DNA of 26,892 nt from a virus. Lineage: Duplodnaviria > Heunggongvirae > Uroviricota > Caudoviricetes. The notes under the pieces are model-generated. The model saw only the letters and a list, made by a program, of their open reading frames with translations, did no database searches and was not told the origin of the DNA. Every line of letters begins with the position of its first letter. Position 1 is the stretch's first letter. The position numbers were made by a program, and so were the translations under genes. The stretch lies in the IMG/VR virus record IMGVR_UViG_2534682096_000007. The stretch is one strand, 5' to 3'. Of the stretch, positions 3,394-7,395 are shown one piece after another.

Positions 3394-3397
<4 letters not shown>
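3086..3397 (+). CDS. ydfR: DUF1327 family protein (YdfR-like) within the lysis cassette
   Basis: 103 aa, placed between holin and endolysin exactly as ydfR sits between essQ and rrrQ in the K-12 Qin prophage. Its stop overlaps the endolysin start (ATGA at 3394-3397). Function unknown. Family call is by size and synteny from memory. Confidence 0.6.
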
Positions 3398-4421
<1,024 letters not shown>

Positions 4422-4785
4422 ATTAATATTAAATCGGATTATTTTTAGCGCTGAATGTGAAATTTAAATAAAAAGGACTCTTCCATGAGTCAAAATCCTT
4501 GAAATCTTAAGGGTAAGATAAAAGGTCATTAGACAGAATGACACGTTTTATTAATAAATAAAGCTATTGTTTCATTCGTGTGTTTTTCTTTACAAAAGTA
4601 ATCCTTGCTATGGTTGGTTAATCATGCGTTAATGGTGTTCTGGTTTGTTACAAAATTATCTGAAGCAGTCATTGTTATAATTTTATTATTTGTACCTCTT
4701 GAGATTTCCTTGTTGGTTTTTCTCTCTGATATTTTTTTTTCGGACCATTCTGCCCAAGGGCTAACTTCTTCAAAAGGTAATAATG
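4422..4785 (+). promoter_or_regulatory. long AT-rich leader and promoter region of the csp gene (cspA-family style 5' UTR)
   Basis: About 360 nt of AT-rich non-coding DNA directly upstream of a CspA-family gene; cspA-family genes are known to have long structured 5' UTRs. Promoter and cold-box elements are not mapped, so exact boundaries are unknown. Confidence 0.35.
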
Positions 4786-4998
4786 ATGTCTAACAAAATG
4801 ACTGGTTTAGTGAAATGGTTTAACCCTGAAAAAGGTTTTGGTTTCATCACGCCGAAAGATGGTAGCAAAGATGTGTTTGTGCATTTCTCAGCTATTCAGA
4901 GCAACGATTTCAAAACGTTAACTGAGAATCAGGAAGTCGAATTTGGTATTGAGAACGGACCTAAAGGCCCTGCAGCTGTTCATGTAGTGGCACTTTGA
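4786..4998 (+). CDS. CspA-family cold-shock protein (CspB/CspI-like, prophage-borne)
   Basis: 70 aa [42 protein letters not shown]... with RNP1-like KGFGFI and RNP2-like VFVHF motifs. AAGG 4774-4777 upstream. An extra in-frame ATG lies at 4783. Confidence 0.92.
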
Positions 4999-5202
4999 GG
5001 TAGAAAATATTACAAACCATATTCACTTTAGATGCCCGTGTTGCCATGGTTCTCAGTATAGAACATCATCTTTTGATGTTTCTGACAGAAATCCTTTCGG
5101 GGCAAAATGTATCTTTTGTAAATCAATGATGATTACATTTGATAATATTTCACAATACTTAAATGTTAGCCATCTGTCGTTAGATTTAAGAAAGTGAAAA
5201 TG

Positions 5203-5226
5203 AAGGCTCCTTCGGGAGCTTTTTTG
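5203..5226 (+). terminator. rho-independent terminator
   Basis: Stem GGCTCC (5205-5210) / GGAGC (5215-5219) with loop TTCG, followed by TTTTTT (5220-5225). Lies about 200 nt downstream of the csp stop. Confidence 0.55.
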
Positions 5227-5269
5227 CTTAGTGTCTAGTCGATGGATACTCACATATTACGGTAACATT

Positions 5270-5500
5270 ATGAAAAAAATAATAGTTTTTTTTAACTCTG
5301 AACCAGCAATGGTAGTGCCAGTGATGACCGGAGTTAACACCATCATGCGTGAATATCCAAATGGCGAAACAACACACCTCACTGTAATGGCTGCAGGGTT
5401 TCCATCTCTGACCGGAGATCATAAAGTCATTTATGTAGCAGCGGATCGACATGTAACTTCAGAAGAAATTCTGGAAGCAGCAATGAGACTCTTGAATTGA
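5270..5500 (+). CDS. small hypothetical protein, YmcE/YnfN-like by position (between csp and gns genes)
   Basis: 76 aa from ATG 5270 (MKKIIVFFNSEPAMVVPVMTGVNT...). Occupies the slot between a cold-shock gene and a gns gene, as in cspG-ymcE-gnsA and cspI-ynfN-gnsB of K-12. Weak RBS; family assignment by synteny only. Confidence 0.45.
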   Translation: MKKIIVFFNSEPAMVVPVMTGVNTIMREYPNGETTHLTVMAAGFPSLTGDHKVIYVAADRHVTSEEILEAAMRLLN

Positions 5501-5672
5501 TTTGATTCTAATGCATTGATAATAAATGATAATCATCTTTATCTGTTTGTGTGAAATTTAGACCGTCATATGTTGATTATTGCGATGTTTCATCTTATCT
5601 TTTATACGTTTGCTCCATATAATTGACACTACTGTGTACCAGGACAGTCATAACAGACTAAAAGAGGAAATG

Positions 5673-5846
5673 ATGAACATTGAAGAGTTAAAAACAAAAA
5701 CAGAAGCAGATATTTCTGAATATATAACAAAAAAAATCATTGAGCTTAAGAAAAAGACCGGGAAAGAAGTTACCTGTATCCAGTTTACTGCACGGGAAAA
5801 AATGACTGGTCTTGAAAGCTATGATATCAAGATTGATTTAATCTAG
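5673..5846 (+). CDS. gnsB: GnsA/GnsB-family protein
   Basis: 57 aa MNIEELKTKTEADISEYITKKIIELKKKTGKEVTCIQFTAREKMTGLESYDIKIDLI, matching the Gns family in length and sequence as recalled. RBS AAGAGGAAA 5661-5669. The ORF-track start at 5580 is rejected. Whether it is the A or B paralogue is uncertain. Confidence 0.8.
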   Translation: MNIEELKTKTEADISEYITKKIIELKKKTGKEVTCIQFTAREKMTGLESYDIKIDLI

Positions 5847-5908
5847 CATGTTTATAGTATTAGCATCAATTTCTCATCAGATGCTATTCAACAATACAAA
5901 TTACCCAT

Positions 5909-5934
5909 AAACCTCGTTTTTACGGGGTTTTGTT
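5909..5934 (+). terminator. possible rho-independent terminator after gns
   Basis: Stem ACCTCG (5911-5916) / CGGGGT (5923-5928, one G-U pair), loop TTTTTA, then TTTGTT. Weak U-tract. Confidence 0.35.
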
Positions 5935-6141
5935 ATATTTAAACATTACCGAATAGATATAAATCTCGATTGTCGATGGTATTGGTTGTGTGACAATACC
6001 TAGTCTTTCCGGTATGCCTGAAGAGAATACAAACGACAGATTATGTAAGGGAAACGCGCTGAAACTTTCACTCTTTCATGCTGAGTGATTTGACGTTATA
6101 TTTTTAGCCGCAAGTGAAGAGCAAACGAATGGAGCGACAAA

Positions 6142-6348
6142 ATGCATAAAGATCAATACACTGATGCCCCCTCCCAGGAGCAGGTTCGTGTAAAAACTAT
6201 GCTTAATAGCACCATTTCGATGGGTTACCCGGATGTTGTAATTGCATGTATAGAACATCAAGTATCTCTGGAAGCATTCAGGGCAATTGAGGCCGCGTTA
6301 GTAAAGCACGATAAGAATACGAAGGATTATTCCCTGGTGGTTGACTGA
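6142..6348 (+). CDS. hypothetical 68-aa protein
   Basis: GGAG at 6130-6133 sits 8 nt upstream of ATG 6142. Single ORF in an otherwise non-coding stretch between gns and the terminase genes. No family recognised. Confidence 0.4.
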
Positions 6349-6710
6349 TCACCATAACTGCTAACCATTCTGACCATTTCACAAGTGACAGAGTCAATAT
6401 CGTATTCTGTCACTGTAAGGCTAATACAGTACTGCAATTCAACTACAGCAATGCCTCGTATTTAGGTGAATTTACAATATCGTCCAGTTCGGATGCCGGC
6501 TGCATTTCTGAAGATAAGGCATTTCGGTTCGCGTATTTTCCCCTCATGCTCGTCAGTCCTGCGCGTAGTAAGAAACAGGACACTCACACTAATTTGTGTG
6601 GGCATGCTGTGATGTCCTTCTGAATTATCCCCATGCCATTATGTAACGCTCTGTTTCAGATGCTCGTCACGGTTGTCAGGCTGTCGGGTCCTCCCAGTGG
6701 GGGTCCCTGC

Positions 6711-6797
6711 CACGGGGCGGGAGCGTCGCGGAAAAAGGCTAGTTTTTGAAATTTTATTCGTCATCACCACTACTGTAATTGATTGATATTACAGTGG
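6711..6797 (+). other. putative cos site (cosN-like cleavage region plus downstream terminase-binding region) with a flanking inverted repeat
   Basis: CACGGGGCGGGAGCGTCGCGG (about 6711-6731) resembles the lambda cohesive-end region (ACGGGGCGGCGACCTCGCGGG as I recall it). Downstream TTCGTCATCAC resembles lambda TTCGTCATAAC. An 8-bp inverted repeat ACTGTAAT-N8-ATTACAGT lies at about 6766-6796. Located about 100-190 nt upstream of terS, the normal position of cos for a GpA-type terminase. Confidence 0.45.
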
Positions 6798-6900
6798 TTT
6801 TATTTTTATGGTGTCGATTCTGATTGTTTTTTGTTCATCACTAACACCGTTTGCCTAAAGTTGTTCGCAAGATGCATGTTTAAAACATTCTGGAGCGGGT

Positions 6901-7395
6901 ATGGATCGAGAGTTAAAAAATCTGACGCTGAATATCAGTCAACTGGCGGCATTGTCAGGTGTACATCGCCAGACTGCTGCGGCAAGGCTGCAAAATCTAC
7001 CCGTTGCAGGGGGGCATGAAAGCAACCTCAAGCTTTATCGGGTGGTTGATATTGTGTCGGCATTTCTGGCATTACCACCGCCGGTTGCAGAAGGCGAAAT
7101 GGACGCGCATGAGCGCAAAGCCTGGTATCAGTCTGAACGTGAGCGTCTTAAGTTCGAACAGGAAACGGCACAACTCATTCCGGCCAGTGATGTCAGACGG
7201 GAGTTTGCCATCTGGGCAAAAGCGGTCGTGCAGGTGCTGGAGACATTACCGGATATTCTTGAACGTGACTGCGGTCTGCAGCCTGCCGCTGTGAGCCGTG
7301 TTCAGTCCATTATTGATGATCTGCGCGATCAGATAGCCCTGCGGGTGACTGAAGCAGGTGCGGATGATGAGGAGGAATTACAGCAGGAGGAGTAA
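6901..7395 (+). CDS. terminase small subunit (DNA-packaging protein, HTH-containing)
   Basis: 164 aa. Lies immediately upstream of the large terminase, with its stop overlapping the TerL start (TAATG at 7393-7397). N-terminal HTH-like segment NISQLAALSGVHRQTAAARL and acidic C-terminus. GGAG 6892-6895 upstream. Confidence 0.7.
   Translation: MDRELKNLTLNISQLAALSGVHRQTAAARLQNLPVAGGHESNLKLYRVVDIVSAFLALPPPVAEGEMDAHERKAWYQSERERLKFEQETAQLIPASDVRREFAIWAKAVVQVLETLPDILERDCGLQPAAVSRVQSIIDDLRDQIALRVTEAGADDEEELQQEE

Follow-up and report, generated by a model that had tools for sequence, protein, structure and literature searches.

A Qin-type cspI-ynfQ-ynfN-gnsB cassette in a Caudoviricetes sequence, probably a cold-shock moron built of separate expression units

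Described counterparts and gene content of the cassette

The closest described counterparts of the locus studied here are the rrrQ-rzpQ-cspI-ynfQ-ynfR-ynfN-gnsB region of the Qin prophage in Escherichia coli K-12 and the cspG-ymcF-ymcE-gnsA locus. The 5'-untranslated region (5'UTR) of cspI was shown by experiment to be an RNA thermometer, the K-12 leader switching its structure at 10 °C (PMC13271884), and YnfR is cold induced (PMC6001520). Overexpression of Gns increases the proportion of unsaturated fatty acids (Sugai 2001, as cited in bioRxiv 10.1101/2024.03.27.586906); in the citing preprint, growth defects at low temperature were rescued by pCAgnsA and by pCAgnsB, and gnsA expression restored the 16:1 and 18:1 fatty acids. 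The cspI thermometer, the cold induction of YnfR, and the fatty-acid effect of Gns give a sound foundation to the role in stress and cold that an earlier note on this DNA, made from the sequence alone, had proposed for the module.

The window (the whole analyzed stretch, 26,892 nt of IMG/VR virus record IMGVR_UViG_2534682096_000007) contains at positions 4422-5846 the same genes as the Qin segment rzpQ-cspI-ynfQ-ynfR-ynfN-gnsB (b1553-b1550), in the same order, on the same strand and with the same spacing; the flanking lysis genes are also shared, and the DNA is nearly identical. PGAP annotates this gene set and order in a 99.9% identical locus as well. Judged from its sequence, the cassette is the already described Qin-type cold-shock module cspI-ynfQ-(ynfR)-ynfN-gnsB, which is common and ordinary; it is annotated in K-12, and its leader, CspI, and Gns were studied previously. 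Positions 4422-5846 probably represent the moron for cold shock already known from lambdoid phages of the Qin/mEp460 type, built of separate expression units. The two settings differ downstream, where the window continues with a 68-aa phrog_657 ORF, an intact terminase and the head-tail region, whereas K-12 Qin continues with ydfO/ynfO/nohA.

The first gene of the cassette, cspI (4786-4998, plus strand), encodes a cold-shock RNA/ssDNA chaperone of 70 aa that is 100% identical to K-12 CspI and is named cspI by PGAP. Its translation matches the Pfam CSD domain over residues 5-69 (E 1.6e-31) and contains both the RNP1 (KGFGFI) and RNP2 (VFVHF) motifs. The earlier note had listed a CspA-family gene followed by a 76-aa ORF and a 57-aa Gns-family gene, and all three were found where it had placed them; its inventory, however, overlooked a 62-codon ORF at 5009-5197 (plus strand), as well as the strong intrinsic terminator at 5202-5225. 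This ORF starts with an ATT codon 10 nt past the csp stop codon, the latter being overlapped by its Shine-Dalgarno sequence GAGG, and encodes a small zinc-ribbon protein of the YnfQ/YmcF type, 94% identical to YnfQ and 69% to YmcF, with a full-length match to the YmcF-like family (PF23641, E 6.2e-34). The four cysteines of its CxxC...CxxC motifs (C9, C12, C34, and C37) are invariant, and so is the ATT start of ynfQ/ymcF in 21 loci. The gene is annotated in K-12 and by PGAP, whereas phage records often overlook it.

Downstream of ynfQ, a remnant of ynfR (5200-5238, plus strand) overlaps the terminator; it comprises 12 codons followed by TAG, compared with 21 aa in K-12 YnfR, and is treated by PGAP as a pseudogene ("too short"). 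The 76-aa ORF is a full-length ynfN (5270-5500, plus strand), identified by similarity to K-12 YnfN and by its match to phrog_3425 (E 1e-55 over residues 1-76), and PGAP gives the name YnfN to a product of identical length. Residues 26-76 are 94% identical to the 51-aa K-12 YnfN, in which a 1-nt frameshift, due to the loss of one T from the T8 run (5286-5293 in the window), leaves translation to start at Met26. Homologues as distant as 51% identity still share the N-terminus. The intact protein is the 76-aa form and not the 51-aa form of K-12, a correction useful for annotation. The AF2 model of YnfN (pLDDT 88.9) has five predicted strands and a C-terminal helix, and gave no match among solved or viral folds. 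The label "ymcE-like" previously attached to this ORF was not borne out, as BLASTP against YmcE yielded no match even at E <= 10; the proposed alignment with both proteins thus held for YnfN and failed for YmcE.

The last gene (5673-5846, plus strand) encodes a GnsB-type protein of 57 aa, and its alignment to the Gns proteins bore out the family assignment, with 91% identity to GnsB and 63% to GnsA. It covers the entire PF08178 profile (positions 1-54 of 54, E 7.4e-33) and matches the GnsA structures 4XO1/4XO2 at E 2e-19.

Both arrangements had been named as mirrored by the cassette, which is accurate for Qin and partly so for the cspG locus. The latter shares a csp gene with an RF01766 leader, the 10-nt gap, an ATT-initiated ymcF, a terminator, and the same promoter-like block upstream of gns, and its DNA can be aligned with the cassette over csp+ymcF (74%) and over gns (73%). 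In contrast, it lacks ynfN, and the 195 nt between ymcF and gnsA hold the ymcE frame, which has no counterpart or homologue in the cassette; the ymcF-gns intergenic DNA cannot be aligned between the two loci, nor can the 5'UTR by BLASTN.

Predicted expression units

The gap upstream of csp is 364 nt long with a GC content of 30%, in agreement with the AT-rich leader of about 360 nt described in the earlier note; nonetheless, the leader itself would occupy only ~145-160 nt of it, since the match to the cspA thermoregulator family begins only at 4627, and the rest is an AT-rich promoter region. The portion at 4422-4604 (plus strand; 29% GC, ~95% identical to K-12 Qin) lies outside the predicted mRNA leader. 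It includes a small inverted repeat (4476-4491) with a terminator-like score on the minus strand only. An rseX-like match on the minus strand (4468-4557, E 1.1) was below the threshold and was treated as a chance match.

A candidate cspI promoter was located at 4605-4633 (plus strand), with a -35 element TTGCTA (4605-4610), a 17-nt spacer, and an extended -10 element, TGc plus GTTAAT (4625-4633); a second GTTAAT is present at 4617-4622. It resembles the cspA promoter (TTGCAT / TGgCTTAAT). A second promoter-like block precedes gns (5573-5607, plus strand) and consists of the predicted elements TTGATT-N17-TATCTT overlapping with TTGCGA-N17-TATACG. This block is retained in the Escherichia gnsB loci, in most Citrobacter loci, and in the Escherichia gnsA loci, in which it falls within the ymcE ORF. 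The consensus promoter scan listed neither of the two, and it returned fewer sites than in shuffled sequences, none of them where expected; the promoter positions that we infer are based on conservation and on the resemblance to cspA.

The putative 5'UTR of cspI (4627-4785, plus strand) has a predicted transcript start at ~4627-4641; the UTR of cspI is presumably 145 nt long. The Rfam family RF01766 (cspA thermoregulator) matches positions 4627-5044 over model positions 1-428 with 109.2 bits (gathering score 78, E 2e-27), i.e., at full length and above the gathering score, like the published cspI and cspG thermometers. In the minimum free energy fold of 4641-4850 at 37 °C, the Shine-Dalgarno sequence and the AUG are paired within one long stem-loop (-49 kcal/mol, z -2.57). 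The leader is ~97% identical to the K-12 cspI leader, with four differences in 4641-4785. The 109 bits obtained here, compared with 159 bits for cspG-type leaders, agree with a published remark on the divergence of the cspI leader (PMC13271884).

The cspI-ynfQ unit ends in an intrinsic terminator (GAAGGCTCC-TTCG-GGAGCTTTTTT; 5202-5225, plus strand) with a folding energy of -12.4 kcal/mol (z -2.6). A GC-rich hairpin with a T-run occurs at this position in nearly all of 21 aligned loci, the weakest being that of Citrobacter sp. NCU1. A second terminator was found by the terminator scan downstream of gns (5909-5940, plus strand; -11 kcal/mol, z -2.2). Two other RNA candidates were rejected: a 3'-end sRNA like STnc220, whose family matches Salmonella and, weakly, Citrobacter loci and leaves the window unmatched even at E <= 10, and a thermosensor-like structure conserved in the 5'UTR of gns, for which RNAalifold gave next to nothing, with three pairs and no covariation.

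Under the reading that we hold to be the best and fairly probable, the cassette is an autonomously expressed low-GC moron for adaptation to cold and stress, which supplies a thermometer-controlled RNA chaperone together with Gns. Its first unit, cspI-ynfQ, would be transcribed into an mRNA whose leader measures ~145-160 nt, from a sigma-70 promoter preceded by an AT-rich region. The leader stem-loop would conceal the ribosome-binding site and AUG at 37 °C, and in the cold the leader would refold and permit translation of the RNA chaperone CspI. YnfQ would be translated from its ATT codon, and the unit would end at the conserved intrinsic terminator. ynfN, which begins 44 nt past this terminator, is probably expressed by read-through, because ynfN tracks the expression of cspI; given the strong terminator ahead of it, read-through is assumed. 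gnsB would form a unit of its own, with its conserved promoter-like block and terminator, and its product, when overproduced, raises the share of unsaturated fatty acids in the membrane.

Published expression data support this reading. In the Tritos prophage, which carries the module at 93.6% identity, CspI and YnfN were 93-fold and 27-fold above the prophage background (PMC9928086). AZT co-induces cspI, ynfQ, and ynfN 5.8-6.5-fold (PMC11228462). In long-term stationary phase, the profiles of cspI and ynfN match, and a cspI deletion loses in competition (PMC7406224). For gnsB, no evidence of cold induction was found, and the gene is missing from both the Tritos moron list (PMC9928086) and the AZT table (PMC11228462). 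Since stationary phase and DNA damage induce cspI too, the label "cold" may be too narrow.

Hairpins within ynfQ

The imperfect hairpin AGAACATCA-TCTTT-TGATGTTTCT that the earlier note had put in the region 5030-5080 is real, but its repeats lie at 5060-5083, inside the overlooked ynfQ ORF. The whole structure (5059-5084, plus strand) consists of a 7-bp upper stem, a 1-nt bulge, and a 3-bp lower stem, and spans the codons for Y-R-T-S-S-F-D-V-S. Its folding energy is -9.2 kcal/mol (z = -2.2), and 4 of 200 shuffled sequences fold as well. Whether the hairpin is a selected cis-acting RNA element, e.g., a stabilizer or a gate of ynfQ translation, or a by-product of coding, can be weighed from comparisons among loci. 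RNAalifold independently predicts it, and 97.6% of cells are paired across 21 loci, compared with 18-43% in slid controls. The loop-closing pair, formed by two synonymous sites, has changed from A-U to G-C or back on at least three occasions; it ranks first among all 1891 third-position pairs and accounts for two of the ten differences that separate one Escherichia/Shigella cspG locus (L024) from its nearest relatives. The ymcF version of the hairpin folds better (-15.7 kcal/mol, z -3.9).

On the other hand, four pairs of the upper stem are dictated by the conserved T-S and D-V codons regardless of the RNA, and because lineages differ in the GC content of third positions, A-U/G-C covariation comes out inflated. 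Across ten more distant genera, the two free pairs are kept in no more than 10 of 20 cases, the stem being degraded in Kosakonia, Leclercia, Siccibacter, and Yokenella, and Rfam contains no family matching it. IMG/VR was considered as a source of added diversity, and the 80 loci listed are 98-100% identical and therefore uninformative. Selection on the hairpin as an RNA element consequently seems to us doubtful, with the odds leaning toward a coding by-product. What appears mildly new in these alignments is a hairpin with compensatory synonymous changes in Escherichia and Citrobacter that is lost in more distant genera. A smaller hairpin within ynfQ (5036-5049, plus strand; CCNUG-UUGY-CANGG) was obtained in the RNAalifold consensus; its pair 30-39 is AU in 11, GC in 5, and GU in 3 loci, and it is weakly supported because the pair ranks only 42nd of 1891 among third-codon-position pairs.

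A broader proposal joins the ATT start and the covarying hairpin or hairpins, 27-75 nt into ynfQ/ymcF, into one cis-acting device, and is linked to a view of K-12 ymcE as a frame that may have arisen by chance over the terminator and the gns promoter after the loss of ynfN. Taken together, we regard this pair of ideas as unlikely. If true, the device would set the dose of the zinc-ribbon protein made from a very abundant cold-shock csp mRNA, or would stabilize or process that mRNA, and it would constitute an undescribed regulatory layer common to cspI- and cspG-type operons.

Spread of the module and its use to host or phage

Of 5426 complete E. coli genomes, 2151 (~40%) carry the module, as do 288 IMG/VR contigs and seven phage records (e.g., mEp460_ev081, HannyBb, 2H10, Tritos, and PhiR63_1). 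csp and ymcF form the conserved core of all 27 gns loci (27/27) and also occur in Salmonella, Kosakonia, Yokenella, and Siccibacter. The cassette is situated between the Rz lysis gene and cos/terminase, on the same strand as holin-lysozyme-Rz. The features expected of a moron include its deviant GC content (34%, whereas the lysis genes have 47% and the structural genes 55%), its absence from the sister phage PhiR55_1, which has other small ORFs at the same site, and the terminators at 5202-5225 and 5909-5940, together with promoters that are predicted only; expression in lysogens is taken from the literature on Tritos (PMC9928086).

The position right after holin-lysozyme-Rz and ahead of cos, on the strand of these lysis genes, is also what one would expect if the cassette mainly served the phage, being transcribed from the late promoter in lytic growth and keeping late gene expression and lysis going at low temperature. 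CspA-family proteins are transcription antiterminators, and CspI would then act as an RNA chaperone or antiterminator and Gns as a membrane modifier; the retention of the cassette in the plaque-forming or inducible phages mEp460_ev081, HannyBb, 2H10, and PhiR63_1 points the same way. Against such a main function, the cassette has promoter-like elements and terminators of its own and is expressed in uninduced lysogens (PMC9928086), related phages manage without it, and it persists in the defective Qin prophage, while csp-ymcF is found at chromosomal sites in many genera. We therefore consider a mainly phage-serving cassette to be quite unlikely, although benefit to the phage and benefit to the host are compatible and not mutually exclusive. 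With the cassette read as an autonomously expressed moron, a lysogen, and possibly the lytic phage, would have improved RNA function and a more fluid membrane in the cold and under other stresses.

The possibility that GnsB is a toxin checked by the upstream 76-aa protein, serving prophage stabilization or the exclusion of other phages, was raised on the grounds that GnsA/YmcE had been proposed as a toxin-antitoxin pair. Such a proposal does exist: a list of E. coli type II systems includes ymcE-gnsA (Wei 2015, as cited in PMC8484670), and both Pfam and PGAP name the Gns family "GnsA/GnsB toxin / addiction module toxin". The cassette resembles such systems in that two small genes lie side by side on a mobile element, here a prophage, and one of them belongs to a toxin-named family. 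However, the 76-aa protein is YnfN, without similarity to YmcE, and the proposed GnsA/YmcE pair is absent, since the cassette contains no YmcE homologue. ynfN and gns are neither overlapping nor coupled, as would be usual for close partners in one type II operon, and are separated by a 172-nt spacer (5501-5672) holding the conserved promoter-like block. Nor do the partners co-occur consistently: the cspG loci and two Citrobacter loci have gns but no ynfN, Yokenella and Raoultella have ynfN but no gns, and K-12 has a frameshifted ynfN next to an intact gnsB. Six of the nine Escherichia/Shigella cspG loci examined, among them those of E. albertii, E. ruysiae, and E. whittamii, have a ymcE frame that is interrupted or without an ATG start, whereas GnsA is 93-100% identical to that of K-12 in all nine; the decay of ymcE beside a conserved gnsA is hard to reconcile with an obligatory antitoxin. 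In a fadR relA background, expression of gnsA and gnsB from plasmids restores growth and does not kill (bioRxiv 10.1101/2024.03.27.586906). The fold search with the predicted YnfN model, which gave no match at all, turned up no DNA-binding antitoxin fold either. With respect to phage exclusion, ynfQ, ynfN, and gns matched none of the PADLOC defence models; the only PADLOC match in the cassette, to the generic CSD of CspI, was not taken as membership in a defence system. A toxin-antitoxin, abortive-infection, or exclusion function for this module is thus highly improbable.

The label "addiction module toxin" on Gns rests on a partner gene, ymcE, that the cassette lacks and that is poorly conserved in other loci. 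The value of the cassette as a discovery is small, and the check still helps its annotation. As a prophage moron it is a clean case, and one that might help lysogens endure cold outside the host.

Setting and spread of the cspI cassette

Positions 3394-7395 form the right-hand end of the late region in a Qin/mEp460-type, lambda-like siphophage. Genes for lysozyme (3394-3927) and Rz/DUF2514 (3924-4421) precede the cassette at 4422-5846; a 68-aa ORF of phrog_657 (6142-6348) and a gene for a DUF1441 protein (6901-7395) follow it, and then come the large terminase, portal, head, and tail genes. Since mEp460-type phage records have their first base at approximately 6876, cos lies just downstream of the cassette. 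At 34% GC, the cassette is poorer in GC than the lysis genes (47%) and the structural genes (55%), and the same site in the close relative PhiR55_1 holds other, unrelated small ORFs; this deviant composition and different content are a moron signature. The phrog_657 ORF, located between the cassette and cos, has no Pfam match and belongs to a family without assigned function. Loci of E. coli and E. ruysiae keep it together with the module, whereas the K-12 Qin prophage has ydfO/ynfO in its place.

The module is a known feature and has been described before. The 1479-nt region is present in 2151 of 5426 complete E. coli genomes (411 of these at 99% identity or more), its genes being named cspI, ymcF/ynfQ, ynfN, and gnsB by PGAP. 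Seven phage records also carry it (mEp460_ev081, HannyBb, two records of 2H10, PhiR63_1, PhiR42_1, and Tritos), as do 288 IMG/VR contigs, as judged by ynfQ.

The cspI leader, ynfQ, and its internal hairpin

The csp gene (4786-4998) encodes a product 100% identical to K-12 CspI. The gap of 364 nt (30% GC) between Rz and csp, which the earlier note had read entirely as leader, is real, but the match to the Rfam cspA thermoregulator model spans only 4627-5044 (109 bits, gathering score 78), so that the leader measures approximately 145-160 nt and the upstream 200 nt is the promoter region. A candidate cspA-like promoter is readable there, TTGCTA (4605)-N17-TGcGTTAAT (4625-4633), which would place the start near 4641 and yield a 145-nt UTR, the length reportedly found by Wang et al. 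in 1999. In the predicted 37°C fold, the SD and AUG are buried within a single long stem-loop. Such behavior was demonstrated experimentally for the K-12 cspI leader, which is approximately 97% identical and refolds at 10°C (PMC13271884). On the minus strand, a GC-rich inverted repeat (4476-4491) with a T-run after it resembles a terminator that serves no gene, and the stretch 4468-4557, conserved with K-12 Qin, shows weak similarity to rseX, short of significance (E 1.1).

The three genes listed in the earlier note (csp, a 76-aa ORF, and gns) are present, but the list omitted ynfQ at 5009-5197, which begins 10 nt past the csp stop. This ORF is 94% identical to YnfQ, matches the Pfam YmcF-like family (E 6e-34), and was overlooked by ORF listing because its frame lacks an ATG, GTG, or TTG start; its ATT start (5009-5011) is the one annotated for K-12 ynfQ and ymcF. 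Among the compared loci L005-L028 and L112-L121, ymcF/ynfQ placed 10 nt after a csp stop starts with ATT (ATC in one locus) in 26/26 cases, its SD overlapping that stop, and stand-alone ymcF starts with ATG in 5/5 loci (Klebsiella, Leclercia, Raoultella, Enterobacter, and Shimwellia). This context dependence of the start codon suggests that, on the abundant csp mRNA, translation of ymcF/ynfQ is deliberately tuned down. A strong intrinsic terminator (5202-5225, -12.4 kcal/mol) lies 3' of ynfQ and overlaps a 12-codon ynfR remnant. The deposited annotations of HannyBb (L123 3131-3331) and mEp460_ev081 (L004 3201-3335) lack ynfQ; in its place, or across the cspI leader, they contain spurious ORFs on the minus strand. 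The Rfam sRNA STnc220 (RF02077) matches the ymcF 3' end and terminator in Salmonella (L112 1647-1725, 106 bits), is sub-threshold in two Citrobacter loci (L018 3664-3741, L010 3448-3526), and has no match in the window; judging from these matches, the csp-ymcF mRNA may be the source of a 3'-end sRNA in some genera.

The hairpin previously flagged as a possible RNA element exists at 5060-5083 (extended, 5059-5084), within ynfQ codons R-T-S-S-F-D-V-S. It is modest in the window by itself (z -2.2) and matched no Rfam family. The hairpin is kept over 21 distinct Escherichia and Citrobacter loci (97.6% of cells paired vs. 18-43% in slid controls), and RNAalifold predicted 5059-5084 independently. 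Its covariation score, which lineage differences in third-position GC content inflate, was reached by 0 of 500 shuffles. As four upper-stem pairs are forced by conserved codons, the informative part is two pairs of third codon positions. The loop-closing pair (Ser TCR/Phe TTY) occurs as A-U (10 loci), G-C (10 loci), or G-U (one locus), with at least three independent switches, and ranks first among 1891 third-position pairs, the second informative pair ranking 54th. Further afield, in ten other genera, only half of the cases (10 of 20) keep these two pairs, and four of the genera show a degraded stem. A selected RNA element is a possible but rather doubtful reading.

YnfN, gns, and the anatomy of related loci

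The 76-aa ORF (5270-5500), formerly considered ymcE-like, has no similarity to YmcE; over residues 26-76 it shares 94% identity with K-12 YnfN (51 aa). K-12 has one T fewer in the T8 run at 5286-5293 (T7), resulting in the annotated 51-aa protein. Since the N-terminal 25 residues are kept in homologs as low as 51% identity, the 76-aa form is the intact YnfN. The T8 run is a slippage-prone tract, and both the full-length and the truncated (T7) forms are frequent among database clusters. In a Raoultella locus (L117 266-946, 3115-3189), stand-alone ymcF-ynfN adjoins a YnfU-like zinc-binding gene and two YnaE-family genes, relatives of the cold-shock proteins YnaE/YdfK, an arrangement that may point to a larger group of small cold-shock genes that travel together.

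The 57-aa gene at 5673-5846 does belong to the Gns family, being 91% identical to GnsB and 63% to GnsA and matching PF08178 and GnsA crystal-structure sequences. It is followed by a terminator (5909-5940) and preceded by a promoter-like block (TTGATT 5573-N17-TATCTT 5596) that is conserved in nearly all locus types and falls inside the ymcE frame in the cspG locus.

With one genome taken per species, 27 loci with a Gns relative were found in Escherichia, Shigella, and Citrobacter, all of them with csp and then ymcF/ynfQ directly upstream of gns. The ymcF-gns interval is variable: it holds YnfN in the Escherichia prophage type and most Citrobacter, the ymcE frame in the Escherichia cspG locus, and neither in Citrobacter sp. 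Res13. Yokenella and Raoultella have YnfN after ymcF without any gns, and Salmonella, Kosakonia, and Siccibacter have the chromosomal csp-ymcF pair alone. The csp-ymcF pair thus forms a conserved core with which YnfN is associated, gns being an addition of Escherichia/Citrobacter; the proposed parallel with Qin cspI-ynfN-gnsB is correct.

Role of the module

The LF82 prophage Tritos carries the module, and in uninduced cells its CspI and YnfN exceed the prophage background 93-fold and 27-fold, respectively (PMC9928086). cspI, ynfQ, and ynfN respond jointly to AZT (PMC11228462), and cspI and ynfN do so in long-term stationary phase, where a cspI deletion is outcompeted (PMC7406224); given this co-regulation, ynfN would be reached via read-through of the 5202-5225 terminator. 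Cold induces YnfR (PMC6001520). Gns overexpression rescues low-temperature growth defects and increases 16:1 and 18:1 fatty acids (bioRxiv 10.1101/2024.03.27.586906, citing Sugai 2001).

Placement of the module at the end of the late operon would also fit an advantage for the phage in lytic growth at low temperature. A toxin-antitoxin pair, in turn, had been suggested from the GnsA/YmcE proposal, which was indeed made (Wei 2015, as cited in PMC8484670) and is reflected in Pfam and PGAP names. The module contains no YmcE homolog, and a YnfN-gns pair is very improbable, as the two genes are 172 nt apart with the promoter-like block within the gap and are separable across genomes, K-12 has a frameshifted ynfN next to intact gnsB, the predicted YnfN model shows no recognizable DNA-binding fold, and plasmid-borne gnsA and gnsB rescued growth rather than killed (bioRxiv 10.1101/2024.03.27.586906). 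Moreover, the ymcE frame is interrupted or has lost its ATG in six of nine cspG loci (E. albertii, one E. coli, Escherichia sp. E1V33, E. ruysiae, Escherichia sp. MOD1-EC7003, and E. whittamii), whereas GnsA is 93-100% identical to K-12 GnsA in all nine. The K-12 ymcE frame (L002 3848-4078; likewise in L020-L028, the Escherichia/Shigella cspG loci) crosses the cspG-ymcF terminator and the conserved gns promoter-like block, and ymcE may not be a functional gene.

The stress role put forward in the earlier note is borne out by the responses of cspI, ynfQ, and ynfN, the cold induction of YnfR, and the Gns effects in the cited studies, and the module is most likely a moron that the prophage expresses for adaptation to stress and cold.
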